From contig JBHLMP010000052.1 of the NCBI GenBank assembly GCA_048938025.1, positions 1-24,489 on the forward strand: a stretch of 24,489 bases of DNA, in the 5' to 3' direction. Below the pieces are notes generated by a model. It did no database searches. It was not told where the DNA came from and saw only the letters and a list, made by a program, of their open reading frames with translations. A program made the position numbers and the translations under genes. This document shows, piece by piece, positions 2,689 through 24,069 of the stretch. This DNA comes from Promethearchaeota archaeon. GTDB taxonomy: Archaea > Asgardarchaeota > Lokiarchaeia > Sigyniarchaeales > SOKP01. Numbering within the stretch: the stretch's first letter is position 1; every line of letters starts with the position of its first letter.

Positions 2689-2850
2689 TTATTCCTTGTC
2701 CTCTCCCATTATTTTAAAAATCCATCTTAATTTGCATTGACGGGAACAGAAAAATCGCTTTACTGGTTCTTGGCTTATATTAATATGGTAATATTCCTTA
2801 TTCCATTTATTATTCACGATGTTTTTTCCACAGTTTTCGCAATAAGGCAT
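2689..2850 (-). CDS. Small TRASH/MYM-type treble-clef zinc-finger protein (53 aa), paralog A; not in ORF track
   Basis: MPYCENCGKNIVNNKWNKEYYHINISQEPVKRFFCSRQCKLRWIFKIMGEDKE has CxxCG...FCSxxC and is clearly homologous to 8368-8520. Confidence 0.8.
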   Translation of the reverse strand: MPYCENCGKNIVNNKWNKEYYHINISQEPVKRFFCSRQCKLRWIFKIMGEDKE

Positions 2851-3002: not shown

Positions 3003-3079
3003 ATAAAAAATAGAAAATTAATTTGCCGCATCTGTCGAAGCTGTGCAGCGAGGTGTATCGGCTCAGTGAGAAATATGAA
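3003..3079 (+). pseudogene. rnhA fragment 1
   Basis: 67/77 nt identical to 10055-10131 of the intact rnhA. Encodes KK*KINLPHLSKLCSEVYRLSEKYE (TGG>TAG). Confidence 0.9.
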
Positions 3080-3279
3080 GAAATAATCTTATAATTAGAA
3101 AACTTAAAAATAATTTACCTATTACTAAAATTATTCTATTTCTCTTAACCATTGATTGACTGGAATTCCACAATATGAACATCTAGGCTAGAACAGAAAA
3201 AAGTTAGTGCATATTTATTATAAATAGATTAAAATTTGCATCAATAGTTAAATATTGAATTTGAGTAAATTTGGAATGA

Positions 3280-5100
3280 TTAACTAGTTTTTAATTTACT
3301 TTGACTCAAGTGCCAATCAAGACTTTGATGCTCAAAATATTGCTTATAAAGTAGAGCATATTTTCCACCTTTAGCAAGTAAAGCATCATGAGTTCCTTCT
3401 TCAATGATTTTTCCATGATCCATTACAATGATTCTATCCGCATTAACAACAGTTGATAACCTATGAGCAATTATTATTGATGTACGATTAGTTAATAATT
3501 CTTGAAGAGCTTCTTGAATTATTGTCTCAGTATAGGCATCTACACTTGAAGTTGCTTCATCAAGGATAAGAATTTTTGGATTACTCAAGATCGCTCGAGC
3601 AAAACTAATGATTTGCTTTTGCCCCGTAGATAATCCCTTTCCTCTTTCACCTACTCGTGTTTCTATACCTTCCGGTAAATATTTGATAAGCTCTTCAGCA
3701 TGAACCGTTCTAATCGCGTTCCATAGTTCTTCTTCAGAAGCGTCGCGTTTTCCATAACGAATATTTTTTTCTAATGTCCCTGAAAATAAAAATACTTCTT
3801 GTTGAACTATCCCAATATTTCTTCTAAATGAATCCAATGTCATATTTCTAATATCTATTCCATCGATTTTAATTGATCCTCCTTGAAATTCATAAAAACG
3901 TGCTAAAAGTGATACTAATGAGGTTTTTCCTGCTCCTGTGTGTCCAACAATCGCTAGTTTTTCTCCTTTTCCTACCCTAAGATTAAATTCTTTAAAAACC
4001 CATTCATCATCTCTGTAGTAAAAGCTAACATTTTCAAAAAAAATTTCTCCTTCCAATTCTCCTACTTCTATTGCTCCAATATTTTGTTTTACGTTTGGTT
4101 CAGAATCAAGTATTTCAAGAATACGTTCATAAGCAGCCATTCCAGAGCTAAGTTGAGGAAAAAATGTAGAGAGAACCATTATCGGCCTAAAAAATCGTTG
4201 GAGATAAAGTATAAATATAAAAATCATTCCAGTGGTTAAATTACCTTCTATAACAAGCTGTCCACCAAAATATAAAATCACTAATAAGGTAATTGCTGCA
4301 ATTATGTTTAATAAATGTCTCCATAGATGTGTTACTGCTGTCAATTTAAAAGTTGATTTGAAATAATCCTTGTTAATCTCGTTAAATTGATTTGATATTG
4401 TTGCTTCTTGACCATAACTTTTAGAGACATGAATACCTTCTATGGATTCTACCATTGCATTATTAACATTCTCTATTGCCTTTCGATAAGCTCTACTGAC
4501 TATTCTTGCTAGCTTTCTAAGAGAAATCATCAATAAAAATACGAATGGTACGGCAATTAAAGCTATAAGGGCAAGATATAAATTTATGAATGCTAAAATA
4601 GCAAATGTTAATATACTAATGAGAAAATTACCAGCAGTCTCAGATATTAAAGAGGTCGTATCTCCAAAATCTAAAGCATCATTTGCAACTCTCGTGTTTA
4701 AAGCGCCACTCTGATACTTGTCAAAAAAAGTCATGTCTTGCATTTGTAATTTATCATAAATATCCATTCGGAGATTTTCTAAGAAATGAGGGACAAAATT
4801 TCCGTATTCTCTTCTACGTAAAAAAAACATTAACCAATCAATAGCAGATAGAAAAACGTAAGTCAAGGCAAGAATTATTATTAATAAAAAGTTAATGTTT
4901 GTAGAAGATAATTCATCAACCCCAAATCCTACTATTAAGGGACTAATAATTTCTGCAATAGTAGAGATGAGAATATATAACGCAATTAAGAATATACTCC
5001 TTTTATACGGAACCAATCTTTTCGTGTATCGAACGAATAACTCTCGATCAGAATAATGGTGCTTTCTCTGCTCGTCCATCAAGCCAGAATAAAGTCCCAA
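3280..5100 (-). CDS. ABC exporter TMD-NBD subunit, TM288/TmrA-like half of a heterodimer
   Basis: N-terminal TM domain, Walker A GHTGAGKTS, non-canonical signature LSTGQ, Walker B ILDE, H-loop AHRL. TTG start behind a G-rich SD. Confidence 0.92.
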   Translation of the reverse strand: MGLYSGLMDEQRKHHYSDRELFVRYTKRLVPYKRSIFLIALYILISTIAEIISPLIVGFGVDELSSTNINFLLIIILALTYVFLSAIDWLMFFLRRREYGNFVPHFLENLRMDIYDKLQMQDMTFFDKYQSGALNTRVANDALDFGDTTSLISETAGNFLISILTFAILAFINLYLALIALIAVPFVFLLMISLRKLARIVSRAYRKAIENVNNAMVESIEGIHVSKSYGQEATISNQFNEINKDYFKSTFKLTAVTHLWRHLLNIIAAITLLVILYFGGQLVIEGNLTTGMIFIFILYLQRFFRPIMVLSTFFPQLSSGMAAYERILEILDSEPNVKQNIGAIEVGELEGEIFFENVSFYYRDDEWVFKEFNLRVGKGEKLAIVGHTGAGKTSLVSLLARFYEFQGGSIKIDGIDIRNMTLDSFRRNIGIVQQEVFLFSGTLEKNIRYGKRDASEEELWNAIRTVHAEELIKYLPEGIETRVGERGKGLSTGQKQIISFARAILSNPKILILDEATSSVDAYTETIIQEALQELLTNRTSIIIAHRLSTVVNADRIIVMDHGKIIEEGTHDALLAKGGKYALLYKQYFEHQSLDWHLSQSKLKTS

Positions 5101-5115
5101 AGTAATACCCCCTTA

Positions 5116-6891
5116 CTAATCCTCAACTTTAATTTCTGGTAATTCAAGATATTTCCCATATATTCGCCTATAATCTTCTGATCTCTGTAGTAACTCTTGA
5201 TGGTTACCTTCTGCTGTGATTGTTCCATCTTTAAGGACTAAAATATTGTCAGAGGCCCTAATGGTATTTAAACGATGAGTTATTATAATTGTAGTTCTAT
5301 TTCTTAAGACATTTTCAATAGCACGTCCAATTTTTTCTTCTGTTTCACTATCTACTGCTGAAACTGAATCATCAAGAATTACAATATCTGGGTCTGTTAA
5401 AAGAGCACGAGCTATAGCAATTCTTTGTCTTTCTCCTCCAGATAATCGCGTGCCTCTTTCACCAACTATGGTTTCATAACCGTTAGGAAAGTTTTGTACA
5501 AACTCATCCACTTGTGCTAATTTAGCAACTTTAATAATATCTGGTTCTGCTGCATCAGGTTTACCAAATGCAATATTTTCTTTAATAGATCGTGGAAAAA
5601 GATAAATATCTTGTTCAATATAACCTACATGTTTCCTTAATACTTCAAGAGGATAATCTTGTATGTCTACATTATCCAAGAGAATTTTACCTTCTTTTGG
5701 TTTATATAGAGATAAAATTAATTTAGCAAGAGTAGTTTTTCCGCATCCTGTCGGTCCGACTAAAGCAATTGTTTGTTGCGGTTCAATTGAGAAATTGAGC
5801 TTTTTAAAAATGGGTTTACTTATTTTTCCTTTATCTTCATAAGAGAAAGACACATCTTTAAATTCTATTTTCCCTTTAAAATTCTTAGGCCAAGTCTTAA
5901 CTAAATTATTACTTTTCTCACTTTCGCCTTTGGATAGTGCTTTAAACAATCGTGAACATGCAGCAAAACCACTCATCATATCATTAGTTGCCCAGAAGAT
6001 TAAATTCGTTGGCTCAACAAGAGTCGTTAAAAGTAAATTCGCAGCAACTAATTCACCGATTGTCAGCATATCAAAATAGACAAAATTACAACTTATAAGA
6101 AAAAGTATACTTATGGCAATATAAAGAGTTAAAAGTGGGTAATACTTGGACTGAACTTCATTTTCTCCAATCCAATTATCTCTAAAAGCACGTACTGCTG
6201 AAAGAAATTTTTTCCTTTCTGATTTTTCAGTTGTAAAGGTCTTTATCACTGCATTACCACTTATATTATCTTGAAGTACAATCGCGATTTTTGAATGTTT
6301 TTCCATGCGTGCAGCAACAAAAGGGGCAAGTTTCTTTCGATAATAAAGAATAAAATAAACGTAAAAAATGAGGAATGGAATAAAAAATAAAGCTAGCCTC
6401 AAATCAAGAACGACAAATAATATATAAGCCATTATCGCCACCTGAATGAATGGATAAATAAAGAAAGCACCGTGAGAGACCATAGTGTTTATAATTCGTA
6501 GATCATTAGTAGCAAGTGCTTGTAAATCACCTGTTCTAGCACTATCATGGTATTTTAAAGGCTTTGATTGGATTACATCAAAAAATTCTGTTCGCATATT
6601 TTGTTCTGTCTTCAAGCCTAAAAAATGTCCTGCCATCATAGAGCCATAATCCAATACTATATTGGTGATATAGAGAAAAAGCGCTGTGAGAATTAACGGG
6701 ATTATTTCTTTAATATTGCTAATCATAATAGTTTTATCAACAATGTCTCCTAGAATAAGAGGAATTAAAGTTCTTGTTAATGTAACGAGAGTAATCCCTA
6801 AAATCAAGAATATCATTAAAAATTTCTGTTTAAGTAGATGATGTAAGAGCCAAGTTAGATAGCTCTTATAGGTCTTTTGTTTTGAGTTCAT
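5116..6891 (-). CDS. ABC exporter TMD-NBD subunit, TM287/TmrB-like half of a heterodimer
   Basis: Walker A GPTGCGKTT, canonical LSGGERQR, Walker B ILDD (catalytic Glu replaced by Asp). 15 bp from its partner gene. Confidence 0.92.
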   Translation of the reverse strand: MNSKQKTYKSYLTWLLHHLLKQKFLMIFLILGITLVTLTRTLIPLILGDIVDKTIMISNIKEIIPLILTALFLYITNIVLDYGSMMAGHFLGLKTEQNMRTEFFDVIQSKPLKYHDSARTGDLQALATNDLRIINTMVSHGAFFIYPFIQVAIMAYILFVVLDLRLALFFIPFLIFYVYFILYYRKKLAPFVAARMEKHSKIAIVLQDNISGNAVIKTFTTEKSERKKFLSAVRAFRDNWIGENEVQSKYYPLLTLYIAISILFLISCNFVYFDMLTIGELVAANLLLTTLVEPTNLIFWATNDMMSGFAACSRLFKALSKGESEKSNNLVKTWPKNFKGKIEFKDVSFSYEDKGKISKPIFKKLNFSIEPQQTIALVGPTGCGKTTLAKLILSLYKPKEGKILLDNVDIQDYPLEVLRKHVGYIEQDIYLFPRSIKENIAFGKPDAAEPDIIKVAKLAQVDEFVQNFPNGYETIVGERGTRLSGGERQRIAIARALLTDPDIVILDDSVSAVDSETEEKIGRAIENVLRNRTTIIITHRLNTIRASDNILVLKDGTITAEGNHQELLQRSEDYRRIYGKYLELPEIKVED

Positions 6892-6916
6892 ATAAGCAAA
6901 TTGTTAATGATTCGTT

Positions 6917-6940
6917 TGATATTAAGAATTTCTTAAATCA
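6917..6940. promoter_or_regulatory. Inverted repeat upstream of the ABC operon (candidate operator)
   Basis: TGAT(A)TTAAGAA-T-TTCTTAA-ATCA, 25-50 nt upstream of the ATG at 6891. AT-rich, so it could be chance. Confidence 0.3.
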
Positions 6941-7129
6941 TAAAAAATTAGTGGAAAAAGTTAATGCAGAAATTAGAAAAAATCTGGACTTTTAAATATG
7001 ATATATCTTTGACAGCAAATTGATATTTATGTTAAAGAATCAGCATTTATAATATCTAAAAAAAATTATTGATTAATTTGAGTAATGAATTGGAATCAAG
7101 AATGAATTTTACTGATTAATATCATATGA

Positions 7130-8125
7130 TTATCTCTTTAAAGCAGAATTGATAATGTAACCTAAAATTCTTCCTTTTATTGAAAAAAAATCATTAAAAA
7201 GTTTGAAAAGTTCTGAATCAAAGGAGGGATTGGCATTTAAATCAAGTAAGAAAAAATTGGAATCTTGGTCAAGTAACCAGTCATATCTTACATAGTCTTT
7301 ACAATTTGTAATTAATTTTAAATCAATTAGTTTATCCTCAATATTCTTTAATAAATGCGAATTTTCAATATCGCATCTTTTATAGAATTGGTCTACAGGA
7401 AGAAGGCTATAATTCTTTTGTTCAAAGTCATAAAACTTTTTTGGAGTTACTTGGATGGTGAATGCTTTAACATCATTACACTCATCATTACCAATAATTA
7501 ATGTTGTATATTCTCTTGCGTCTTCAATAAACTCTTGAATAAGAATTATCTCTTTCTGGCCTAAAATATTCTCTATATATTCAATTCTCTCCATGACTTC
7601 TTTAAACGAATTACAAATACTATTTTCATCAAGGAGTAAAGAATCTCCTGAAATCCCCATTTTTACAATAACTGGCGATCTTAATACTTTAACCTTTTCT
7701 TCTAAAAACCTCAAATCAATCCCTTGATAATATTTCACCGTATTTGGATGATTTATTCCTAAATATTCAAATAAATATAACATGAGATCTTTCCGTTCGA
7801 AAAATTCAACATAATTAGCTTGTCGACCTGTATATTTTATCCCTAAGAAATTAAATAATTCAATGAAAAAAGCATTTTTTGAAAAATCATTTTCATATCC
7901 ATTATCCGCTAAATTAACAACTAAGTCGATCTGGTCCTTATTTTGTAAAAAGTAATCGATACTCTTATTATGGGCATCTAACATTAAAATATCGTATTTA
8001 TCTTTTAATAGATCTAATTCATTTTGAAAATCCTCAAAATCAGTATAACCCTCTATAGGCAATTCAAAATCATAAATTTTTATATTGTTTATCTTATCAT
8101 AAAAAAGAACTACAATATTTTTCAT
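7130..8125 (-). CDS. ATP-grasp protein, D-Ala-D-Ala ligase-like
   Basis: LGIKYTG, PVIVK, LIQEFI...EYT, YVRYDW and LDLNANPS motifs of the Ddl-type ATP-grasp fold. Substrate unknown. Confidence 0.75.
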   Translation of the reverse strand: MKNIVVLFYDKINNIKIYDFELPIEGYTDFEDFQNELDLLKDKYDILMLDAHNKSIDYFLQNKDQIDLVVNLADNGYENDFSKNAFFIELFNFLGIKYTGRQANYVEFFERKDLMLYLFEYLGINHPNTVKYYQGIDLRFLEEKVKVLRSPVIVKMGISGDSLLLDENSICNSFKEVMERIEYIENILGQKEIILIQEFIEDAREYTTLIIGNDECNDVKAFTIQVTPKKFYDFEQKNYSLLPVDQFYKRCDIENSHLLKNIEDKLIDLKLITNCKDYVRYDWLLDQDSNFFLLDLNANPSFDSELFKLFNDFFSIKGRILGYIINSALKR

Positions 8126-8367
8126 TTGCTTTTTTCAATTCTCCAATCTTAGCAGAATAAATTTTCCTTTTATTCATTTTAAAATTCTTATTTGAATTAA
8201 GTAATTATGAATAATAAACCTTAATTTATTTGGACCAAATTCAATCCAGTGGGAAATCTCATTAATTGATATAGACTCTGATTTAATTATTCACAGAGAT
8301 TTAAAACAAGATATTTAGAAATATACTATAAAAAGAAATCTATTGAGCCATTATCAAAATAGTAAAA

Positions 8368-8520
8368 TCAATCTTCCATTACTCTAAAAATCCAGCTCAA
8401 CTTACATTTATCGGAACAAAATACTCTTTTTTCTGGTTGCTGACATATATTGATATGCTGATGTACCCTTCCCCATTTATTATTCCCGATGAATTTACCA
8501 CAGAATTCGCAAACCGTCAT
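8368..8520 (-). CDS. Small TRASH/MYM-type treble-clef zinc-finger protein (50 aa), paralog B; not in ORF track
   Basis: MTVCEFCGKFIGNNKWGRVHQHINICQQPEKRVFCSDKCKLSWIFRVMED; shares CExCGK, NNKW, HINI and FCSxxCKLxWIF with paralog A. Confidence 0.8.
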   Translation of the reverse strand: MTVCEFCGKFIGNNKWGRVHQHINICQQPEKRVFCSDKCKLSWIFRVMED

Positions 8521-8578
8521 TACTTCTCTTCTTGTCTATCCTCTTTAAATTCTTCTTTCTTTTACAGATTTAAGTTTA

Positions 8579-8600
8579 ATTACTCTATGTTGCTCATAGA
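8579..8600 (-). promoter_or_regulatory. Conserved 22-nt leader motif, copy B
   Basis: + strand ATTACTCTATGTTGCTCATAGA; coding-strand hairpin TCTATG-AGCAA-CATAGA. Confidence 0.5.
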
Positions 8601-8761
8601 ATAATGATTTATTTATACGTATTTTGTAGGCTTTTGAGTCCTTATATGTCCCCTTCTTAAAAATCCTGTTTATATTGAGAAAGATACAGGTCAAAATATT
8701 ACTCCATAAGTTAGAAAATAAGTTTTTGATTGCAACCAAAACTCAGAAAAAATAGACTTAC

Positions 8762-8908
8762 TTATCTTCTATGCTTTTTATAACATTCTCGACAATAAAC
8801 AGGCCTACCTTCCTTAGGCTGAAATGGAACCTCGCACTCATTCCCACAATCGGCACATGTGGCTTTGTACATTGTTCTATTGCCATAACTTCTCTTTTTA
8901 TACGACAT
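8762..8908 (-). CDS. CxxC-x17-CxxC domain zinc-ribbon protein (48 aa); not in ORF track
   Basis: MSYKKRSYGNRTMYKATCADCGNECEVPFQPKEGRPVYCRECYKKHRR carries the family hallmark VPFxP..GRPVYC; GGTGA SD upstream. Confidence 0.9.
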   Translation of the reverse strand: MSYKKRSYGNRTMYKATCADCGNECEVPFQPKEGRPVYCRECYKKHRR

Positions 8909-9251
8909 GCTTTCACCAAATTTTAATTCTTTTTTTATTTTATACTTGAAACTTTGGAATTTCTCTGCTCAAGTATGTAAGATATGTTTCTAAATTTAAT
9001 AAACGTTCTCATTATGAAAAAAATACAAATAGATTTCCTCTCTAATATATGAAATCTTCGACTCAGTATAATTAATTTTCATTCAAGAAATTCATAATTT
9101 TGATAAACAATAATAATGGGATATGTTTATGGGAATCTAGTTGATGAGGGTGAATATAATGATATAACAACTAAGAAAGAAGAAAGAACCTACTTATTTT
9201 TATACTTTCTAAAATAATTGAAAATAGTGAGAAGATATTTAAAAAATTAGC

Positions 9252-9752
9252 TTGAGGTGGATTAAAATATCCAAAGAAATATTGCTAATCGAAAAAATTA
9301 CAAATGAAATTGCTGAAATTTGTGGAAAAATTAGTGCGAGAGAACATGGAATAATAGAACATCTTAAAGATCTCGAAACGTGGAAAAGCGAATCCTTGGT
9401 AATAGAATCAAATCAATTGAAAAAATTAAATAAACTCCTTGATAAAGCTAAGATAAATCTCTCAAAATTAGCCAATCAATATCCTGAACGTTTCAAATCC
9501 TTGGAAGCTGAATTTACGGAATATAGTAAAAAATGGGAGGAGAAGAATAAGGATTTCTTATATAAAAAGTTAATAGATCTAGAGGAAATTAGATTTTCTT
9601 TAGAAAATAAGCTTAAAGAATTAATAGAGAGACTTCAGGAAGGAGTAATTTCCGATTCTGAATATAATAATCAGGAAAAAGAGATTAAAAATGAATTAAT
9701 TGATAAATCCTCAAAAATTACTTATTTGCGAGCATTTATTCATAAATTATAA
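9252..9752 (+). CDS. Hypothetical coiled-coil protein with a SHOCT-like C-terminal motif
   Basis: Helical and E/K/L-rich; LQEGVISDSEY resembles SHOCT (G.I...EY). Start uncertain: the SD-like GAGGTGG overlaps the TTG. Confidence 0.6.
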   Translation: MRWIKISKEILLIEKITNEIAEICGKISAREHGIIEHLKDLETWKSESLVIESNQLKKLNKLLDKAKINLSKLANQYPERFKSLEAEFTEYSKKWEEKNKDFLYKKLIDLEEIRFSLENKLKELIERLQEGVISDSEYNNQEKEIKNELIDKSSKITYLRAFIHKL

Positions 9753-9789
9753 ATTTGCGATAAATCAAATACATATCTATAAGAAAAAC

Positions 9790-10224
9790 ATGAGTAAAAA
9801 TCCAATTAAAAAAGGGGATATCCTAAAAATTTATACCGACGGCGCTGCTCGTGGTAATCCCGGTCTGGCTGCCTGTGCTTTCTTATTTGTTCATAACGAT
9901 GAGGTTATCCATGAAGGCTGCAATTACATTGGAAGTGCGACAAACAACACCGCTGAATACCAAGCGATTATCAACGCGCTAAAGACGGCTGAAAGGTTCC
10001 ATAGAGGGCACTTACAAGTATACTCCGACAGCAACCTAGCCGTACAGCAAATTAATAAAAAATGGAAAATCAATAAGCCCCACCTGTCGAAGCTGTGTAG
10101 CGAGGTGTATCGACTCCGCGAGAAATATGAAAAGGTGGAGTTTTTCCATGTGGGAAGGGATAACCCCTACATCCAGAAGTGCGATACACTATGTAATGAG
10201 CGATTAGATGCGAAAGTCCCTTAA
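9790..10224 (+). CDS. rnhA: Ribonuclease HI (archaeal/actinobacterial type)
   Basis: YTDGAARGNPG, TNNTAEY, YSDSNL and CDTLCN contain the acidic catalytic residues. ATG at 9790 preferred (the 9700 start overlaps the upstream gene). About 46% GC over 9841-10200 (166/360 counted). Confidence 0.92.
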   Translation: MSKNPIKKGDILKIYTDGAARGNPGLAACAFLFVHNDEVIHEGCNYIGSATNNTAEYQAIINALKTAERFHRGHLQVYSDSNLAVQQINKKWKINKPHLSKLCSEVYRLREKYEKVEFFHVGRDNPYIQKCDTLCNERLDAKVP

Positions 10225-10410
10225 ATAATAAAATTTCCTAACAATTTAGTTCAGATTTCTTTCTGTAATAAAATCTAGAATAATAATATATAAGGGAGTT
10301 ATAAAATTTCAGAGTAAGTTTTTTAAAAACATTTGGTTTTATAACTATCTGAAGAAGAGTCAAAATTGAATATTTTATTTTTAAACTATCAATTGGAGGT
10401 TCTGTAAAAA

Positions 10411-10629
10411 ATGGTAAATATAAAAAAATGGGACGATAATGAACATTGGGTTGAAATTGATTTAGATCTATGTGTTGGAGCAGAAGAATGCATAAATGTA
10501 TGCCCTGTAGACGTATATGAACTTATAGATGGTAAAGTTGTGGCAGAAAATATCGGTGAGTGCACCGATTGCATGGCATGCCAAGATGTGTGTCCTACTA
10601 ACGCAATCTTAGATCACTCTGCGTGGTAA
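10411..10629 (+). CDS. Dicluster ferredoxin
   Basis: CVGAEECINVCP and CTDCMACQDVCP; GGAGGT SD upstream. Confidence 0.9.
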   Translation: MVNIKKWDDNEHWVEIDLDLCVGAEECINVCPVDVYELIDGKVVAENIGECTDCMACQDVCPTNAILDHSAW

Positions 10630-11002
10630 ACAATATACGCTTTGTTTAGTTTATAAAAGGTAGCTTAAGCATTTGCAAATATCCTCAATTTATGTTCTAT
10701 AATCAATTTAATTATTATTCAGATTTCTTTTTACTTTAAATATGGAAAAATTGTCTAAAGAAGGACTTTTAAGAAAATCGAAAATTCCAGGATTTAATGC
10801 TATTAAAATGTATTAAAGGAAAGATTCAGGATAAAGGATAATTTTATTTATTATATTTTTTTCATACGCAAGAGAGATGAATTCAATTATTGATATTAAC
10901 ATTCTAATATTATTGAACATGTTCGAATTTATCTATATAAAAATAGCTTCATTATTTGTTTTAATAAATTAAATATAATTTTTGAAAAGGTGGAAAAAAT
11001 TT

Positions 11003-11539
11003 ATGATGCCAATTGGTCCATTAATGAAAGAACATAGACTTATTGAAAAAATGATTCAACTCATGGAAAAAGAAATTGAAAAAATGAAGAAATTTGCAAA
11101 AGCAAATCCTCTATTTATTGATATTGCTGTTGACTTTATTAGAATGTACGCTGATAGAACTCATCATGGTAAGGAAGAAGATATTCTTTTTAGAGACTTA
11201 GAAAAGAAAGAACTCTCTCCTAATCATAATAAGATAATGGAAGAACTAATAGAAGAACATATATGGGCAAGAAATACGGTAGGAAAGTTGGTTGATGCTA
11301 AAAATCAATACGAAAAAGGTAATATAAAAGTACTAAATGATATTGTAAAATATCTAAGTGAATTAACGGATTTTTACCCAAAGCATATTGAAAAGGAGGA
11401 TAAACATTTTTTCATCCCTGTAATGAAATATTTTACCAAAGAAGAACAAGATAAAATGCTCCAAGAATTTTGGGATTTTGACAAAACGTTAATACATGAA
11501 AAATACAAAAAAGTTATTGAAAACCTTCAAAATAAATAA
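11003..11539 (+). CDS. Hemerythrin/HHE cation-binding domain protein
   Basis: LMKEHRLI, HHGKEEDILF, EEH and HIEKED motifs. ATG at 11003 follows the SD AGGTGG. Confidence 0.9.
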   Translation: MMPIGPLMKEHRLIEKMIQLMEKEIEKMKKFAKANPLFIDIAVDFIRMYADRTHHGKEEDILFRDLEKKELSPNHNKIMEELIEEHIWARNTVGKLVDAKNQYEKGNIKVLNDIVKYLSELTDFYPKHIEKEDKHFFIPVMKYFTKEEQDKMLQEFWDFDKTLIHEKYKKVIENLQNK

Positions 11540-11559
11540 AAATTTCTACCATTTTTATT

Positions 11560-12123
11560 TCAATTCTTCTCTTTTTCCATATTACTTATATCAATTCCAA
11601 GTTGATACGCTTCTTCTAATTGATCTTGGCACATATTAATTGGAATATCTTTTTTTTCATCTTTGTTATAGGTACAGCATGTAATTATGAATAATTTGAT
11701 GTCAAAAAATGGCGCTATCCGTTCAAAAAATGCAACTGTTGATTCACAGTGATGACGATAAGTAATTATGACTACAAATGTTTTATTTCCAAAATCTTCC
11801 CAAGCAAGAGCTTCCATTCTATCGAACACTGTTTTTAATTGAGCCGTCATATATCCCCAATACATAGGAGTGGCAAAAACTATTGTGTTTGCTTTTTTAT
11901 ATGCAGAATAAATTTCTTCCATATCATCTTTTATAGCACAGCTATGATTTACTGAAGTTGCGCATGTTAGACATCCTTGACATGGTTTAATATTTAATTC
12001 GTTGGTATAAAAATGTTTTACTTCCTTATCTCCATTATAATTCAATCCTCTTATGAAATAATCAACTAAAGTATCTGAGTTTTGATTCTTTCTAGGGCTA
12101 CCATGGAATATTATAGTTTTCAT
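11560..12123 (-). CDS. Flavodoxin family / iron-sulfur flavoprotein (FMN reductase fold)
   Basis: GSPRKNQNS, CQGCLTC...C and ATPMYWGYMTAQLKTVFDR motifs. Confidence 0.9.
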   Translation of the reverse strand: MKTIIFHGSPRKNQNSDTLVDYFIRGLNYNGDKEVKHFYTNELNIKPCQGCLTCATSVNHSCAIKDDMEEIYSAYKKANTIVFATPMYWGYMTAQLKTVFDRMEALAWEDFGNKTFVVIITYRHHCESTVAFFERIAPFFDIKLFIITCCTYNKDEKKDIPINMCQDQLEEAYQLGIDISNMEKEKN

Positions 12124-12258
12124 AACAATAAACTCTCTTTCTAAAAATATTTTTATTATCCATTAAATTTTCTTGAACCATTAATTATTATTACATCATT
12201 ATTTAAGATTACATAATACTTAACTGAAATTAATTTAAGCTCAAAGGGTGAATTAATA

Positions 12259-12597
12259 ATGATTTTAGTACAATGGTCGTGTGAAATTCCACAAGAAAAG
12301 CTTGAAAGCTTCATAAATTTTGCAAAAAATAAGCTAAAGCCTTTTTATGAATCCTATAGGTGTATGAGATATGAACTTCTTTTCCCTATGATTACAGAAA
12401 AAAAATATTTTCCTTATCAAGAAACTGAAATTAAAAATAGATACACGGAGCAGTTAGTATTTAAAAACATTAAAGCTTTTAACGATTTTCATAACAATAT
12501 TGAAAAAAATCAAGAGGCCCAAGATATAGTTGGAATGTACGTGAAAGAATTCGGAATTTCTAATTGTACTTTCAAAATATTTACACATCATATTTAG
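12259..12597 (+). CDS. Hypothetical protein, probable dimeric alpha-beta barrel (ABM/NIPSNAP-like)
   Basis: 112 aa with a GGGTGA SD; beta-alpha-beta pattern, fold inferred only. Confidence 0.55.
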   Translation: MILVQWSCEIPQEKLESFINFAKNKLKPFYESYRCMRYELLFPMITEKKYFPYQETEIKNRYTEQLVFKNIKAFNDFHNNIEKNQEAQDIVGMYVKEFGISNCTFKIFTHHI

Positions 12598-12666
12598 GAT
12601 TATATAAAAAGAAAGAAGTAGTATCAGAAAAGGAATTCAAAAATAATCTAGAGAGTGTAAGAAGAA

Positions 12667-12819
12667 ATGCATAAAGGATTAAGCTTTGGTACCATAACAA
12701 TCCAGCGATTACCATGGTAGGAAGAAGTCAAGCGCTGGAAAAGTATTGAAGCTTTAAAATTTGATAGCAATTGGTTCGCTGATCATTTTTTAGATCCTTA
12801 TAACCCACTTGATAATTGG
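12667..12819 (+). pseudogene. 5' fragment of an LLM-class (luciferase-like) flavin-dependent oxidoreductase gene
   Basis: MHKGLSFGTITIQRLPW*EEVKRWKSIEALKFDSNWFADHFLDPY matches the LLM N-terminus (FG...E.L.FDS.W.ADH). Internal TAG at 12718; truncated where rnhA fragment 2 begins. Confidence 0.8.
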
Positions 12820-12823
12820 TGTA

Positions 12824-12889
12824 GTGTACCAGCTTCGCGAGAAATATGAAAAAGTGGAGTTTTTCCATGTCGGCAGGAGCAATCCTTAG
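12824..12889 (+). pseudogene. rnhA fragment 2
   Basis: VYQLREKYEKVEFFHVGRSNP*, aligning to 10105-10170 at 53/66 nt; 7 of 10 changed codons are synonymous. Confidence 0.9.
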
Positions 12890-12906
12890 ACCAATTTTTT
12901 TTTAAA

Positions 12907-12986
12907 AATAAATAAAGAAGTCTCAATTATGAAATCCATTAAGCTTGAAGGTTTTAACCTTATATCAAAAACCACTTATTATCAAA
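12907..12986 (+). repeat. 80-bp direct repeat, left copy
   Basis: 66/80 identical to 14639-14717; contains the palindrome AAGGTT-TT-AACCTT. Confidence 0.8.
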
Positions 12987-13025
12987 TATAAATAAAAAAA
13001 AAAATGAATTTATGTTTTAAGTTCC

Positions 13026-14576
13026 TTACATTTTGCATCCGAAAAAGTAAACTTTATATCCAATCGCCATTGCAAATCCAAATCTAGTAATTAGTATTCT
13101 TATTGAACCTAAATCATTTAAACCAGTAAAGATTTCATATCCCCTATAAGAATAATGATCAATTATATCCCATGAAAAGCGTTTATCCTTAATTTTAAAA
13201 TCTATTAAATTCCCATTGATAAAAATCGTTGTTTTCCCTATATACCACCTATATCCAATTTTAATACTACCACATCCTTCCAACATACTATGACTAATAA
13301 GCCATTCATAGGTCGGTTGACTTACTTCCTCTTTAGAATATTCACCTGAATAAACATCTAAATGACCATATCCCCATAAATAGTGTCCTGTAAAATCAGG
13401 ATTAGCAATCCAATGTATGAAAGGCCCCCAATAGGCGAGCCCAAATAATTCACTTGTAAAACCAAGCAATGGAACGTCTATTTCATGATAATGATCATCA
13501 AAATCATATGTAACATATGGACAGTTGTCCCAATCACTTATAGCTTCACTTTCAAGACCTAATCTAATAGGCCAATACCTATCAAATGTAGCATCAATGT
13601 GAAGCATGACCCTAGCATCTCCCTTACCGCCATAGATATTACTAACAACACCAGGTCCCCATGCATAGTATATCGCAAATGCTGCCCATTCTAGGATATT
13701 TGTCCAAGGCAATCCAGTATAAGGATTAATTACAGGTTCGAGAGGATCTCCTGTATAGGGATTGATTGCAGGTGCATCAGGATATTGATCAGCATATTTC
13801 AATATGAAAATTCCTCCCGGAGAACTCCCCACCTCCCAGTACCAATTACCTGTTGCTATCATCCCAGCTATCATTGCTGGTAAATTAGTTGAATTAGTAA
13901 CAAGACTTGGGTATTTTGCTCCAGTTCCACCATCTCTTAATAATATACCTTTTAAATCTTCTTGCCAATATCGCGAGGCATAATTCATCGCAGCACTACC
14001 TCCAAAACTATCACCCGCGATAAAGAGCTTTCTGACTCCAGAGACTTCTTTCGCGAGTTCTACAGCTTTCTTTATATCACCTATCCAGGCATCCCAACCC
14101 CATTCTGCCATAAATGAAAGTTGATCTGGATTGAAATAAATTGGCACAAAATGAGTTCTATAATCTATGGCATAAACATCGAAACCTCTATTTGCTAAAA
14201 ACAGTGCAAAAGAATGGTCCTCGTCTGCGGTCCACTCATCATCGGGGGGATTTGAACATAATTGTTCACCAGTACTCCATGTTCCTGGCAGAATAAACAC
14301 AACTCCTAGTGGGTTAATGCCTTCTTTTACTACTCTATGCAACCCTATTCGATCATAAGGACCGTAGGGTGGTCTCTCAGTTTCCCAAACATATTCTCTT
14401 AATTCCGGGTAAGCTTTTACATCTCTTCCATCATGGACTAAAGTCCAGTCATCTATTTCCCTTTCGCATTTATTTAAAGGAATAGAAACAGCGGGAGTCA
14501 TAAAAATACAAATTACTAAGACTAGAACTATAGAAAATGAAATTACTTGCACTTTGTTAAGTTTCATAAATTTCAC
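13026..14576 (-). CDS. Secreted alpha/beta hydrolase (esterase/lipase-like)
   Basis: N-terminal signal/TM segment, GFDVYAIDYR, nucleophile elbow GDSFGG, GYGHLD with the putative catalytic His. Confidence 0.85.
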   Translation of the reverse strand: MKFMKLNKVQVISFSIVLVLVICIFMTPAVSIPLNKCEREIDDWTLVHDGRDVKAYPELREYVWETERPPYGPYDRIGLHRVVKEGINPLGVVFILPGTWSTGEQLCSNPPDDEWTADEDHSFALFLANRGFDVYAIDYRTHFVPIYFNPDQLSFMAEWGWDAWIGDIKKAVELAKEVSGVRKLFIAGDSFGGSAAMNYASRYWQEDLKGILLRDGGTGAKYPSLVTNSTNLPAMIAGMIATGNWYWEVGSSPGGIFILKYADQYPDAPAINPYTGDPLEPVINPYTGLPWTNILEWAAFAIYYAWGPGVVSNIYGGKGDARVMLHIDATFDRYWPIRLGLESEAISDWDNCPYVTYDFDDHYHEIDVPLLGFTSELFGLAYWGPFIHWIANPDFTGHYLWGYGHLDVYSGEYSKEEVSQPTYEWLISHSMLEGCGSIKIGYRWYIGKTTIFINGNLIDFKIKDKRFSWDIIDHYSYRGYEIFTGLNDLGSIRILITRFGFAMAIGYKVYFFGCKM

Positions 14577-14638
14577 CTATTTTTGTTAAAATGTGTTCGT
14601 GCAATAGATTAAACAAACTAGTATATAAAAATTATGGA

Positions 14639-14717
14639 AATAAACAAAGAAATTTCATTTATAAAATACTTAAAACTTGAGGGTTCTAACCTTATTCAAA
14701 AACCGCTGATTATCAAA
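14639..14717 (+). repeat. 80-bp direct repeat, right copy (runs into rnhA fragment 3)
   Basis: Matches 12907-12986; its 3' end ACCGCTGATTATCAA corresponds to rnhA ACCGCTGAATACCAA. Confidence 0.8.
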
Positions 14718-14895
14718 CAACTATCGACGCGCTCAAGATGACTCAAAGGTTCCATAAGGGGCACCTATAAGTGTACTCCGACAACAACCTAGCCGTACAG
14801 CAAATCAATAAAAAATGAAAAATCAATTCCCCACACCTGTCGAAGCTGTTAGCGAAGTGTACCAACATCGCGAGAAATATGAAAAAGTGGAGTTT
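14702..14895 (+). pseudogene. rnhA fragment 3
   Basis: Colinear with 9949-10143 (TADYQTTIDALKMTQRFHKGHL*VYSDNNLAVQQINKK*KINSPHLSKL...EKYEKVEF); two stops and a 1-nt deletion. Confidence 0.92.
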
Positions 14896-15017
14896 CCCCC
14901 AAGAAAATTGAAAGATTTGAATTTTCTGAATAACGAGTTTTAGTTGATTTTTTATAAACAAAAATGTTATAAACTCCTATATAATTTAGATCTCAATCAT
15001 AAACAAGGTGTTAAAAA

Positions 15018-15653
15018 ATGTTTAAGAAATTTATGGATGCTTTAGGAATTACAAGCAATAAGATTAATGATTTAATTAAAGGAAGTAATCAATATATTAA
15101 TGCCGTAGAAAATGTCACGAAGGAAATTAAAAATACTGTTGCCACATTAAAAGGTTATGCTGAAACGGAGACTCCTTCCTTAGGGCAAGCAATAGGGTCA
15201 TTAGCTTCTACATTTGAAATTATTGACAAAGAAAGTACGGAAAAAGTCAAAAGACTCCGGGAAGAATATATTGTGCCGCTAAATGATCTTTTAATTAACC
15301 TAAAAAAACTCGAAACTGAACAGAATGAAGCTCAAAAGGCCTCGAAAGGATTAGAAAAAGCTGAAAAACATCTAAGTAAAGTCAAAAGCAAACCAAAAGA
15401 AAAATTAAAACCAAATGAAATACAAATAGCTGAAACAGAATTAACAACTGCGAAAGAAAAAGCTACTAAAGAAGAAAGCGATGTAAAAGTGGCAACCGAG
15501 GAATTTAATAAAGTAAAATTAGAAACTATGCAAAAAGTCCTTAAAAATATGGTAGATATAGAAACTATTTTTCATAAAAAGATTCTTGATTCCGTAGCAA
15601 CTGTAAAAGTAAAAGCTGAAGCTATTAAGATTGACGAAGAATCAAAAATTTAA
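15018..15653 (+). CDS. BAR-domain protein, FAM92/CIBAR-like (eukaryotic signature protein)
   Basis: All-helical 211 aa. YAETETPSL, RLREEYIVPL, IAETEL, EEFNKVKL and IETIFHKKIL match FAM92-family BAR motifs in order (recalled from memory, not searched). Confidence 0.75.
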   Translation: MFKKFMDALGITSNKINDLIKGSNQYINAVENVTKEIKNTVATLKGYAETETPSLGQAIGSLASTFEIIDKESTEKVKRLREEYIVPLNDLLINLKKLETEQNEAQKASKGLEKAEKHLSKVKSKPKEKLKPNEIQIAETELTTAKEKATKEESDVKVATEEFNKVKLETMQKVLKNMVDIETIFHKKILDSVATVKVKAEAIKIDEESKI

Positions 15654-20765: not shown

Positions 20766-21036
20766 TTAACACACCATCTCTATTTTAGTCAAGTAAATCC
20801 TTAGCAACTGTGAGAAAAGACTTTCTGACAATGAAATATTTTAGAAATGAACCACTATATTACCCTTAACATGTCCAATTCGAGATAAATACTCCTATCC
20901 TTTTATTGTCAATTTAAATATTTAATGAAAAAACGGATTTTTAAATGTATAGGTTTAAGGAAAGTTATCCCCACCTATAATATTAACTTCAAATCGTTAG
21001 TAATCGATTTTTATTGATGAGATAATTTTACTTAAA

Positions 21037-21816
21037 CTATAAAGTGTTTTGTATAAGTTTGTGTAAAAAATAACCTATACCTAAATAACTAATTTCTATT
21101 GATTTTTCCTTTTTATCATCAGGATTAGGATAAAGGTTAACCGCAGAAATTTTTTCTAATTTTTGAATGAATCCATTTATAGCACCCCGCGATATAGTAG
21201 AATTTCGTCTTGTTTCCAATGCTTCTTTGATATCTTCTAAAGAACCATACTTTTTCCGATTGGTTAATAATGGATTCTCATTGAAAGATAAATTTGATTG
21301 AAAAAATTTGGTATAGACTTGATAATCACCAAAAAAAAGCTCTAAAAATTCAAATTGCTTCTCTGTTAAAGATGGAAATGGAACGGTGATTAATTCTATG
21401 TTAGAGTATATCCCCACTTCTTCATTCTTCTCATAAATAAAATCTCCATGAATGATACGAGTATTCGTAATGGAACATGCACTATAAAACCAAATATCCA
21501 TATACCGTAATCCTCCCGAGATATTTACTATGATATTATCAAATCCGTTGAGTTTTTGTTGGTAAATAAGATGAATTAATTCTGCAATGGGTTTTGTTTG
21601 GATGTGAAAATCGAATTTCGCATTCTCAACCTCAACCCGCCGTTCTTTATAATACCTATTTAACTCATCCAATACTTTTATAGCTTCAAGTGTTCCTGGA
21701 AGTGGTTGTCGCTCAGTTATGAAAATCACTTTATGAACGACTTCTTTATCAATGGAAAATATCAATTTTGAAGATGTATGCCCCACTAAAATAAGTTGAC
21801 AATACTTTTCAATCAT
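21037..21816 (-). CDS. CARF-domain + winged-helix protein (Csa3/DUF6293-like transcriptional regulator)
   Basis: N-terminal strand LILVGHT, CARF motif IIVNISGGLRYM, linker PFPSLTEKQ, C-terminal ISRGAINGFIQKLEK...IEISYLG wHTH-like segment. Confidence 0.75.
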   Translation of the reverse strand: MIEKYCQLILVGHTSSKLIFSIDKEVVHKVIFITERQPLPGTLEAIKVLDELNRYYKERRVEVENAKFDFHIQTKPIAELIHLIYQQKLNGFDNIIVNISGGLRYMDIWFYSACSITNTRIIHGDFIYEKNEEVGIYSNIELITVPFPSLTEKQFEFLELFFGDYQVYTKFFQSNLSFNENPLLTNRKKYGSLEDIKEALETRRNSTISRGAINGFIQKLEKISAVNLYPNPDDKKEKSIEISYLGIGYFLHKLIQNTL

Positions 21817-23944: not shown

Positions 23945-24069
23945 TAAACTATAAATTGTTTTGTATAAGTTTATGTAGAAAATATCCAATACCTAAATAA
24001 CTTATTTTGATTGATTTTTCTTTTTTATCATCAAGATTAGGATAAAGGTTAATCGCAGAAATTTTTTCT
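23945..24069 (-). pseudogene. 3'-terminal fragment of a second CARF-wHTH gene copy
   Basis: Ungapped match to 21033-21157 with 11 differences (7 synonymous); EKISAINLYPNLDDKKEKSIKISYLGIGYFLHKLIQNNL*. Confidence 0.9.

Follow-up and report, generated by a model that had tools for sequence, protein, structure and literature searches.

Arrays in which displaced gene ends lie downstream of a complete gene are already known from bacteria. In the Rhs "C-terminal displacement" arrays of Enterobacteriaceae, a complete gene is followed by co-oriented, 5'-truncated remnants with other genes interspersed, and Jackson et al. (2009, PMC2935791) attribute these arrays to laterally acquired DNA that recombined homologously through the conserved part of the gene, with circular intermediates. 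There the displaced tips are toxin ends that vary and come with immunity genes, and their retention has a clear selective reason. The effector-immunity arrays of the Vibrio cholerae type VI secretion system (T6SS) are explained by sequential displacement through homology-facilitated illegitimate recombination (Kirchberger et al. 2017, PMC5361080); old genes, and once the 3' end of an old effector, were moved downstream, and no integrase enters into the explanation given there. That system too is one of toxins and immunity, in which selection keeps the immunity genes. Integrative elements that target the 3' ends of genes (with pieces of the gene left as attR) and the cassette arrays of integrons likewise have inserts flanked by direct repeats of the 3' part of a gene, and form arrays with newer insertions nearer the complete gene.

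We found this pattern of scars in an Asgard archaeon. The window, the whole stretch of 24,489 nucleotides that we analyzed, is on contig C70 of the genome labeled G000. The anchor here, unlike that of Rhs arrays, is the small gene of an RNase HI (rnhA), which is complete and has homologous 3' ends, and the cargo consists of unrelated metabolic, transport and secreted-protein genes. The selective logic of the T6SS arrays was not seen at rnhA. Another difference from those arrays is that several unrelated genes show the pattern, at their 5' as well as their 3' sides. The features of the window are as follows.

2689-2850, minus strand: zinc-ribbon gene (DUF7576), 53 aa, preceding relic 1
3003-3079, plus strand: relic 1, rnhA nt 266-342, 87% identical
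3216-7107, minus strand: ABC-transporter module of two genes (Pfam ABC_membrane, ABC_tran)
8368-8520, minus strand: zinc-ribbon paralogue (repeat 2702-2943 / 8372-8608, 73% identical)
9790-10224, plus strand: intact rnhA (RNase HI), 144 aa, the present complete copy of the anchor gene
11547-12171, minus strand: FMN-reductase cargo module (gene 11560-12123), in contexts that differ among species
12165-12820, plus strand: module of ORF112 and the start of a luciferase-like monooxygenase (LLM) gene; 7 nt that it shares with the FMN-reductase module (AAATTTT) form the joint between the two
12667-12822, plus strand: 5' stump of the LLM gene, fused to relic 2 (boundary from an alignment with four relatives)
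12823-12889, plus strand: relic 2, rnhA nt ~311/315-386, 87% identical, in-frame TAG at its end
12906-12986, plus strand: 81-nt direct repeat, left copy, including a 16-nt start that is rnhA nt 158-173
13026-14576, minus strand: alpha/beta-hydrolase cargo gene (Pfam Hydrolase_4, 2.9e-07), with relics 2 and 3 on either side
14638-14717, plus strand: 81-nt direct repeat, right copy, running into relic 3
14699-14895, plus strand: relic 3, rnhA nt 157-355, 85% identical, one indel; a decayed pseudogene
14898-15653, plus strand: flank 3' of relic 3 with a FAM92/BAR-like gene (15018-15653; Pfam FAM92, 5.6e-08)

The relics appear to be remains of other rnhA alleles. The initial annotation had described the intact gene and three plus-strand fragments that all overlap 10105-10131, and a repeat finder, BLAST and nhmmer each recovered them. 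The product of the intact gene matches Pfam RVT_3 (1.2e-15) and RNase_H (7.9e-14). The suggestion that the fragments came from other alleles, and not from recent local copies, is supported because their identity to the intact gene (85-87%) is about that of the intact genes of sister species (87-89% for the DNA of the intact G012 and G043 copies). Relic 1 has five synonymous and three non-synonymous codon changes, including one in-frame stop. Relic 2 differs mainly at synonymous sites, as had been claimed, with seven synonymous and four non-synonymous changes (one a stop), although the changed codons total 11 and not 10. Relic 3 has eight synonymous and 15 non-synonymous changes, with two stops and a frameshift. 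We also confirmed that relics 2 and 3, which are 95% identical over 40 nt, have the TAC-CA and GAA-AAA variants in common. The 27-nt core common to the three relics was considered as a possible att site and rejected. Random placement of three fragments of the same lengths gave at least 27 shared nucleotides in 12.4% of 200,000 trials, so the core is not significant in itself, and comparison with relatives shows at least two of its defining endpoints to be secondary deletions.

Each relic has a counterpart junction in other species. Relic 1 belongs to an old junction lineage, a zinc-ribbon module followed by rnhA from nt ~266; its upstream junction essentially recurs in G012_C18, G018_C5, G024_C24, G051_C37 and G062_C53 and is decayed in G014_C91. 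(The zinc-ribbon gene scores 7.2e-06 against Pfam DUF7576, slightly under the curated cut-off.) Relic 2 is what a deletion left of a lineage with an LLM gene followed by rnhA from nt ~246. In G012_C18, G018_C89 and G001_C81, a full LLM gene with its stop codon (in G012_C18, an ORF of 299 aa at 3262-4161) precedes an rnhA piece that starts at nt 244-256; compared with the G012 contigs, the left end of relic 2 is a deletion joining the truncated LLM gene to rnhA nt 311. The reading frame of the LLM gene, a name read from the translated sequence, breaks at 12820-12822 in the window and carries on in four aligned relatives, consistent with the earlier report that relic 2 abuts a truncated gene. 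Relic 3 belongs to the lineage of hydrolase gene, 81-nt repeat and rnhA from nt 158 that is common to G043_C20, where the block 12978-14838 is 88% identical and also lies between rnhA relics. The 81-nt repeat, whose two copies in the window are 83% identical to each other, is present there once. That relics 2 and 3 bracket the hydrolase gene was likewise verified. The right end of relic 3 is a deletion between two TTTTTCC stretches, again by comparison with the G012 contigs: the sequence from 14898 onwards is joined directly to relic 3, and in G012_C68 it is preceded by a relic that reaches the stop codon plus ~45 nt. The flank 14898-15653 is 92% identical to G012_C68 7326-7556, directly after that 3'-complete relic, and is probably the old resident neighbor of rnhA.

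The relics are not an artefact of assembly, because their junctions are spanned by public contigs. G000 was assembled from a metagenome, its contamination is estimated at 5%, and the contigs of relatives are broken by repeats; all of the genomes compared are metagenome assemblies, with arrays split across short contigs. Nevertheless, Logan contigs from run X1, possibly the source sample, span each of the three relic junctions (0-1 differences), and those from run X4, which comes from another study, bridge the rnhA 3' end and the junction of relic 2 with the hydrolase block. The junctions also recur in assemblies of other species of the genus, and the copies are 13-15% diverged and so are not collapsed repeats. 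An artefact, which had been named as a way in which the pattern might arise, is thus barely credible.

Arrays of rnhA pieces occur across the genus. rnhA is an accessory RNase HI gene in a chromosomal region that is hypervariable in this Promethearchaeota (Loki-type Asgard) genus; 25 of 54 genomes carry it, and the rnhA query had no match in two single-contig genomes. BLAST of the whole G000 genome placed the rnhA-related pieces on the window's contig only, but in the genus two or more copies or pieces were found on 11 contigs (G000:C70, G012:C68, G012:C18, G018:C5, G018:C89, G043:C20, G051:C84, G001:C378, G002:C23, G042:C45 and G045:C20), and were co-oriented on all 11 and mixed on none. There are four rnhA members in G000 and up to nine matches in G018, and rnhA has more relics than any other gene. 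As had been proposed, the fragments sit at discontinuities: the gene content of close species differs exactly at the rnhA pieces, and the modules between pieces are shuffled. The order in G012_C68 is intact rnhA, FMN reductase, relic (nt 94-426), solute-binding protein, relic (nt 293-432) and a flank of the 14898 type; in G012_C18 it is zinc-ribbon gene, relic, ORF112 and LLM, relic; and in G043_C20 it is relic, hydrolase, relic, ABC transporter, intact rnhA and zinc-ribbon gene. Matches to the window are spread over at least five contigs in relatives, in contrast to two 20-kb control regions that are collinear on one or two contigs where present.

At least one cargo module is found at different genes in different species. 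In G012_C68 and G043_C6, a copy of the FMN-reductase module that is 97.6-97.8% identical directly follows intact rnhA. The G018_C5 copy, 95% identical, instead comes after a gene for a GTPase, with a duplication of 60 nt of the GTPase 3' end flanking it, and G018 matches G000 at only 66-80% outside the module, which is evidence for movement of cargo between species. The module of ORF112 and the LLM start is 93% identical in G012_C18 (between two rnhA relics) and 89% identical in G014_C143, and the ABC-transporter module is 96.5% identical over 3.9 kb in G043_C20, between a relic (nt 158-298) and intact rnhA. Module identity alone is no proof of transfer, because identities of 95-96% in G012 and G043 are also found for a control block of 6.5 kb. 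The cargo genes that we scanned encode metabolic or secreted proteins and use both strands, and many cargo units are single genes.

The boundaries of the rnhA pieces do not point to a site-specific system. Of 28 partial copies on the contigs that we fetched, 25 lack the 5' end, 12 reach the stop codon and three retain the start. Their 5' start points fall at 11 or more positions across the genus (nt 7, 94, 119, 158, 232, 244-256, 261, 266-269, 293-294, 318 and 338), and each has its own upstream sequence, as expected from separate illegitimate joins and not from a single att site. Similarity between copies stops at the rnhA stop codon or within ~50 nt of it, the repeat unit being the gene alone. 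A system using rnhA as the att site of integrative elements or integron-like cassettes, with a recombinase encoded elsewhere or of unknown type, would agree with the co-oriented direct repeats around inserted DNA, the 3'-complete copies (like attR remnants), the insertions close to the stop codon and the many single-gene cargo units, and the near absence of known recombinase families from G000 leaves room for it. However, unlike integrative elements and integrons, the locus has no constant core, no attC-like or other common end motif and no fixed repeat length (60-573 nt depending on the event, the longest being a 573 bp repeat around a 6.1-kb insert in G051), and its cargo lies on both strands. 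Fourteen cargo segments had no shared end motif and no terminal inverted repeat >8 nt, the FMN-reductase module is at two unrelated targets, each of them duplicated, and the same architecture is found on either side of other genes (below). We found no integrase beside any array examined. In agreement with the initial annotation, a Pfam scan of 19 window ORFs of at least 60 aa plus the 53-aa zinc-ribbon ORF revealed no integrase, transposase or reverse transcriptase (RT). None of the four recombinase/RT families searched was on the contigs that carry rnhA in G000, G012 and G043 or linked to rnhA in G018 and G051. Searches of G000 for serine recombinases and TnpB were negative, and its one tyrosine recombinase, on another contig, reads as a putative Xer-like protein; each of five genomes searched has one strong copy. 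A site-specific system is therefore improbable. Of the two roles first proposed for rnhA, att site and homology anchor, we retain the second.

The rnhA gene itself is also a poor candidate for the mobile unit. The pieces could be dead copies of a small RNase-H-carrying element, as had been suggested, or retro-copies of mRNA. Patchy presence in the genus, two to three near-full copies in each of several genomes (G043, G051, G045 and G053), copy boundaries close to the gene and closest outside relatives that are bacterial (32-43% identity) are all compatible with such a unit, and the loss of 5' ends from copies with a common 3' end is reminiscent of target-primed reverse transcription. But searches for RT in G000 and G051, both with multiple rnhA copies, found none, and the only RT near a distant RNase H paralogue (G012:C16) adjoins radA, the paralogue being broken. 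The viral contigs searched held no rnhA relatives. We read the A-rich stretch after the rnhA stop as that codon followed by AT-rich DNA. Unlike dispersed insertions, the copies are clustered and strictly co-oriented, and in G000 they are on a single contig. We consider this explanation very unlikely.

The displaced-relic process is general in G000 and is not specific to rnhA. We identified 24 pairs in this genome in which a gene has a non-coding fragment close by, and all 24 were direct repeats. In eight, the fragment is a 3' end located downstream, and in seven it is a 5' end located upstream; one pair of each kind has the opposite layout, and seven fragments are internal, three of these from rnhA. 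At two loci we observed empty and filled sites. G000:C66 has a gene, 2.4 kb of cargo and a 208-nt relic, and is filled in G012 too, whereas G043 and G056 have a single copy without cargo. G000:C72 has a gene, 1.2 kb of cargo and a 110-nt relic, and is empty in G043, G012 and G056. The empty sites indicate that the cargo is added DNA and not a copy of its neighbor. The C66 relic is 89.5-91.4% identical to the single copy in G043, compared to 84-87% for the 3' end of the intact copy, which is what a displaced resident end should show.

These loci bear on whether incoming DNA is needed at all. Duplication within the genome, by unequal crossing-over, replication slippage or template switching, followed by decay and differential deletions, could also leave relics. 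Short same-contig repeats in G000 are strongly biased (176 direct versus five inverted, many of them tandem paralogues), and template switching, which may include a switch to a distant template within one cell, also yields inserts with target duplications of arbitrary length and microhomology at the joints. A phylogeny built on 167 columns (nt 266-432), whose signal is weak, places all G000, G012 and G043 copies in one clade and groups the LLM-lineage relics by genome and not by junction. This pattern would fit gene conversion between copies, but purely internal duplication as well. On the other hand, only rnhA is repeated, and the cargo between copies is unduplicated. The added cargo at C66 and C72, the closer match of a pseudogene relic than of an intact 3' end to the empty site, and the FMN-reductase module in G018 also argue against a purely internal origin, which we regard as possible but rather unlikely.

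Based on these comparisons, we conclude that the relics are recombination scars and not a functional or dedicated docking site, and we favor, with a probability of roughly 0.55, homology-anchored additive recombination that pushes out the resident 3' end at each gain. DNA from related lineages would bring an rnhA allele with different downstream genes and recombine with the resident gene, rnhA serving as the stretch of homology. A circular piece could integrate by a single (Campbell-type) crossover, or a linear piece could use homology on one side and an illegitimate join on the other, as in homology-facilitated illegitimate recombination; the joining would presumably be done by the general recombination machinery of the host. 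Either route would give a complete rnhA followed by new cargo, with the old 3' part and its downstream flank displaced further downstream. Repeated rounds would line up 5'-truncated relics in one orientation, separated by cargo modules, and the relics would later be trimmed by short-homology deletions and the modules reshuffled by recombination between copies.

Several observations fit displacement less well. No donor lineage was identified for the rnhA events, which counts against it, and the mechanism alone does not account for the excess of relics at rnhA. The pieces found upstream of an intact rnhA, namely relic 1 and two of the relics in G043_C20, need extra steps, and displacement gives no reason for the 81-nt repeat to have a second copy next to the hydrolase gene. 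The microhomologies at the junctions (AAATTTT and TTTTTCC) carry little weight, because they are A/T-rich in a genome of 29% G+C.

Contig depth in the bin of the FMN-reductase module was 5-8x that of its neighbors in run X1, and was raised in runs X4 and X6 too, which also favors movement of this cargo between species.

The displaced partial copies of rnhA (relics) in the window were real features of the genome. The window, which is the whole of the 24,489-bp contig G000:C70 (30% G+C versus 29% across G000, the 3.5-Mb metagenome-assembled source genome), contained an intact gene and three relics:

9790-10224, + strand: intact rnhA, encoding a 144-aa RNase HI (Pfam)
3003-3079, + strand: relic 1, rnhA nt 266-342, 87% identical
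12823-12889, + strand: relic 2, rnhA nt ~311/315-386, 87% identical, ending in TAG
14699-14895, + strand: relic 3, rnhA nt 157-355, 85% identical, with one indel

Every relic junction was bridged by contigs from public metagenome runs, one of them from a second study, indicating that the pieces are not assembly errors. These were assembled contigs, which in contrast to reads do not reveal circles, excision, or rare variants, and joints with short side lengths were left out. In one contig from run X6, relic-3-like sequence continued into the 3' end of rnhA, and we read this contig as a relative's longer version of relic 3. The details described in the initial annotation were confirmed: relics 2 and 3 share variants (by our alignment, 95% identity across 40 nt), relic 2 has mostly synonymous changes (by our count, 7 synonymous versus 4 non-synonymous), a truncated gene for a luciferase-like monooxygenase (LLM) adjoins relic 2, and the hydrolase gene is bracketed by relics 2 and 3.

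Partial copies of rnhA were found in other genomes of the genus, most of them lacking the 5' end of the gene. Using a protein query, we found that RNase HI was accessory: it was present in 25 of 54 genus genomes, several genomes held pieces only, and two single-contig genomes had none. There were six matches in G012, nine in G018, and seven in G043 (all related Promethearchaeota genomes), and near-full copies numbered three in G043 and two in G051. The nearest relatives of the protein outside the group were bacterial (32-43% identity). On contigs with at least two copies or pieces, the copies were always co-oriented (11/11), a count of contigs that are not independent because some junctions were inherited. 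Searching the fetched contigs with nhmmer yielded 49 rnhA copies, 28 of them partial; the 5' end was missing in 25 of the 28, the stop codon was reached in 12, and the start was kept in 3. The 5' start points fell at nt 7, 94, 119, 158, 232, 244-256, 261, 266-269, 293-294, 318, and 338. Each group of start points had its own upstream sequence, indicating that the groups are separate, heritable junctions. Similarity between copies was that of the gene only, ending at the stop codon or no more than ~50 nt beyond it and reaching at most 134 nt upstream.

The 27-nt core common to the three relics did not behave as an att site. The initial annotation had proposed that rnhA might be a repeatedly used att or homology anchor. 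When three such fragments were placed at random, they overlapped by at least 27 nt in 12% of cases (P = 0.12), and two of the endpoints in the window are secondary deletions. The first is the left end of relic 2. In contigs of three related genomes (G012_C18, G018_C89, and G001_C81), an rnhA piece starting at nt 244-256 lies behind a full LLM gene with its stop codon. In the window, the LLM frame is interrupted at 12820-12822, and rnhA follows immediately from nt 311. The left end of relic 2 is a deletion that joined LLM to rnhA nt 311. The second is the right end of relic 3, which stops at nt 355. On G012_C68, the counterpart of the window from 14898 onward is preceded by a relic that reaches the stop codon and continues for ~45 nt, and TTTTTCC is present on both sides of the missing stretch, so that this end is a second deletion. 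The start points were scattered, with at least 11 distinct 5' start points among the partial copies. On all three grounds, we rejected a constant short att core with fixed endpoints. Direct repeats did flank the inserted DNA, as at att-type insertions.

The rnhA pieces coincided with differences in gene content. Modules between the pieces varied among close species and recurred in new combinations, consistent with the link to gene swapping that had been suggested for the window. The orders of genes on three contigs illustrate this (ORF112 is the ORF preceding the start of LLM):

G012_C68: intact rnhA, FMN reductase, relic (nt 94-426), solute-binding protein, relic (nt 293-432), flank corresponding to window 14898
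G012_C18: zinc-ribbon gene, relic (nt 267-427), ORF112 and LLM, relic (nt 246-432)
G043_C20: relic (nt 338-432), hydrolase, relic (nt 158-298), ABC transporter, intact rnhA, zinc-ribbon gene

The ABC transporter on G043_C20 was 96.5% identical to window 3216-7107, and the FMN-reductase and ORF112 modules meet in the window at a common 7-nt AAATTTT. Matches to the first 20 kb of the window were scattered over at least five contigs in each of G012, G043, and G018, whereas two 20-kb control regions were collinear on one or two contigs where present (one of them was largely missing from G012 and G018). Breakpoints also occurred away from rnhA pieces, for example at 11547, 15688, 16986, 21032, and 23004. 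Variation extends over the whole contig, and rnhA is its most repeated landmark.

The FMN-reductase module provides evidence that cargo crosses species. The module was 95% identical in G018, in contrast to other G018 matches (66-80%), and contig depth over it was several-fold higher in three of four metagenome runs. Identity by itself is no proof of transfer, because a conserved 6.5-kb control block was likewise 95-96% identical in G012 and G043. On G018_C5, the module is located behind a GTPase gene, whose 3' end is repeated as a 60-nt duplication flanking the module. In run X1, the bin at 11340-12006, which overlaps the FMN-reductase gene (11560-12123), had a summed contig depth of ~500 versus roughly 50-170 in neighboring bins; depth was also raised in X4 (from another study) and X6, and variant contigs were numerous. 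Several co-occurring organisms seem to have this gene in common at 92% identity or more.

The same type of scar was present at other genes of the source genome. In a comparison of G000 with itself, short repeats on the same contig were direct in 176 cases and inverted in 5. We counted pairs in which one copy was inside an ORF of at least 100 aa and the other was outside, and all 24 such pairs were in direct orientation. In 8 of these, the 3' end of the gene was duplicated with the stump downstream, and in 7 the 5' end was duplicated with the stump upstream; two had the opposite layouts (one of each), and the other 7 were internal, including the three rnhA relics. On contig C66, a 150-aa gene is followed by 2.4 kb of cargo (encoding a 701-aa protein on the other strand) and then by a stump comprising 208 nt of the gene's 3' end. 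This site was filled in G012, and G043 and G056 had a single copy without cargo. Compared with the single copy in G043, the stump was 89.5-91.4% identical and the 3' end of the intact copy was 84-87% identical, and the stump was contiguous with the old downstream flank. On C72, a 383-aa gene, 1.2 kb of cargo, and a 110-nt stump were arranged in the same series, and the site was empty in G043, G012, and G056. Filled and empty sites were thus found at both C66 and C72. For rnhA itself, we saw module differences between species and no clean empty site.

Two further repeats were observed. The largest example of the scar was on C87 of G000 (42849-55393), where a 493-aa gene and a 179-nt stump of its 3' end (90.5% identical) enclose 11 kb of cargo with about ten genes. 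In the window, a 125-nt direct repeat (21033-21157 and 23945-24069, 91% identical) has one copy at the 3' end of a gene at 21037-21816 (- strand; weak HFX_2341_N/Csa3_N matches) and a non-coding copy upstream of that gene, with a PNPOx gene and a Ras-family GTPase gene between them. On G043_C6, both flanks are joined through this repeat.

These arrangements are most simply accounted for by additive recombination, with a shared gene as the anchor. In this account, incoming DNA would carry the gene, or its 3' part, together with different neighbors, and the incoming copy would pair with the resident gene. The product would be one complete gene beside new cargo, with the end of the resident gene left as a stump on the old flank. 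This could occur through a circular intermediate and a single crossover, or through a linear fragment joined by homology at one end and illegitimately at the other, and the assemblies fit both routes. Stretches of ~5-7 nt were shared at three joints, two of which are later deletions; the stretches are A/T-rich in a genome of 29% G+C, and such microhomologies are weak evidence for that reason. Two observations do not fit additive recombination readily: relic 1 and two relics in G043 lie upstream of an intact copy, and the second copy of an 81-nt repeat beside the hydrolase gene falls outside this account.

Duplication within a genome would also place the copies in one clade, and the copies from G000, G012, and G043 did form a single clade in a tree of 167 columns. 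We treat the tree as no more than a weak indication, because it is short and support values were left aside. No donor was identified for any rnhA event. In the same tree, relics of the LLM lineage grouped by genome rather than by junction, a weak signal that may reflect continued interaction between copies. More stumps were collected by rnhA than by any other gene, perhaps simply because it is a shared gene within a region that tolerates insertions.

No recombinase linked to the rnhA copies was found in a search of five genomes for four families (tyrosine recombinase, serine recombinase, TnpB, and reverse transcriptase [RT]). The initial annotation had reported no integrase, transposase, or RT in the window, and a Pfam scan of 20 window ORFs agreed with this; likewise, no integrase was detected in 10 ORFs of related arrays or in 10 further ORFs. 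The check proposed in the initial annotation, for a recombinase linked to intact copies, gave no match to the four families on the rnhA-bearing contigs of G000, G012, or G043. Genome-wide, each of the five genomes had one strong PF00589 copy; the single match in G000 was on C33 and is taken as a putative Xer-like recombinase. No tyrosine recombinase was found on any rnhA contig of G000, G012, G018, G001, or G014, and on the same contigs there was no IntI (a tyrosine recombinase), arguing against an integron. Serine recombinases (PF00239) were absent from all five genomes, TnpB was absent from G000, and RT (PF00078) was absent from G000 and G051. Based on the lack of PF00078 in these two genomes and the clustering and co-orientation of the copies, we consider retro-copying or a non-LTR-like element very unlikely. 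No RNase HI relatives were found in viral contigs, and there were no matches to tRNA genes or Rfam families in the window.

TnpB matches did occur in related genomes: on G018:C89 at 22900, between two relics ~28 kb apart; on G051:C37 at 48147, ~9 kb from a relic; and on G051:C84 at 8843 and 49927, with the copies over 20 kb away. By eye, a 506-aa ORF on G018:C5 (65602-67122, - strand), ~1.3 kb from the FMN-reductase module, has a TnpB-like N-terminus; it was absent from the PF07282 matches. Within G012:C16:17000-31000 (positions 5944-9490 of that stretch, - strand), a 382-aa RT gene immediately precedes radA (Rad51 family, 4.6e-70), followed by a metallophosphoesterase gene and a broken RNase H paralogue, which is ~2 kb from the RT and 54% identical to the window's protein. 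We do not read this RT as part of an rnhA-carrying retroelement because radA and the phosphoesterase gene are in between.

The ends of the cargo did not resemble those of cassettes. The cargo genes that we scanned encode metabolic, transport, or secreted proteins and lie on both strands. Among 14 cargo segments, exact-match and by-eye checks revealed no common end motif, and the best terminal inverted repeats were 5-8 nt, which we judged unremarkable in such AT-rich DNA. These findings argue against attC-type ends, and the lack of a constant core and of an integrase within or beside the inserted DNA argues against an integrase att site. We think it very improbable that the arrays are an active integrase-free cassette platform, in which small circular modules circulating among Promethearchaeota species preferentially enter at the 3' end of the accessory RNase HI gene (or of a few others), with entry by an unrecognized recombinase or promoted by RNase HI at its own locus, and with relics serving as reusable recombination sites for module swaps. 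Such a platform, if it existed, would be an archaeal analogue of the integron built on gene homology instead of attC.

The arrays were most similar to the displacement arrays of Rhs, CDI, and T6SS genes. Like those arrays, they combine a complete gene with co-oriented, 5'-truncated remnants that keep a homologous stretch (25/28 partial copies; 11/11 contigs). In contrast to those arrays, which have variable toxic C-terminal tips and immunity genes, the rnhA relics have 3' ends homologous to the intact gene, and the cargo is not of the toxin-immunity type (FMN reductase, hydrolase, ABC transporter, solute-binding protein, and similar). For Rhs arrays, the proposed model involves a circular intermediate and one crossover (PMC2935791); for Vibrio T6SS arrays, it involves a linear fragment that is homologous at one end and joined illegitimately at the other (PMC5361080). 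Aloposons, described as tRNA-targeting elements with giant genes (PMC8813620), and the Atabeyarchaeia elements, which have tyrosine integrases and an 11-nt motif (PMC11529989), are unrelated to the rnhA relics. A preprint on Asgard Tn7 names nrdD and tRNA sites, and the terms "RNase H" and "rnhA" are absent from its main text (10.1101/2025.07.27.667033). We found no published description of rnhA relics or of such scars in Asgard archaea; supplementary locus tables could hold some.

Interest in Asgard archaea stems from their position as the closest prokaryotic relatives of eukaryotes, and, to our knowledge, gene gain in their genomes is poorly understood. The clear outcome here is a marker, usable again elsewhere, of gene gain without an integrase in an Asgard genus, with no sign of a new molecular machine. 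Accessory genes in this genus would be added beside a shared gene through ordinary recombination, with neither an integrase nor a transposase detected, and gene gain of this type is seen again at several loci, where sister species have filled or empty sites. The relics would then be dated, readable scars of single gene gains, and directly oriented gene stumps (3' or 5') could serve as a practical marker of gene flow in uncultured archaea. Relic arrays would also explain why metagenome assemblies break in such regions.

Several other features were noted in and around the arrays. Eight dispersed repeats of 60-75 nt in G000 (C23:1079-1139, C35:1486-1551, C51:46609-46683, C52:108326-108399, C71:71-140, C71:1596-1654, C71:4474-4529, and C76:30728-30792) form one family and could represent remnants of tRNA ends or of att sites, or else a small repeat element. 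A conserved 330-nt module (window 8694-9021) contains a small ORF (8762-8908, - strand) for a 48-aa CxxC...CxxC zinc ribbon; it follows the zinc-ribbon/relic junction on G051_C37, G062_C53, G024_C24, and G001_C378 and is also present on G043_C20. The latter contig encodes, at 621-1925 of the fetched stretch, a 597-aa ORF of no clear family with a tandem repeat (period ~165 nt, 72-75% identity). Finally, the 211-aa protein encoded at window 15018-15653 matched Pfam FAM92 over nearly its whole length (5.6e-08, above the cut-off), a eukaryotic BAR-domain family that is unusual in an archaeon.
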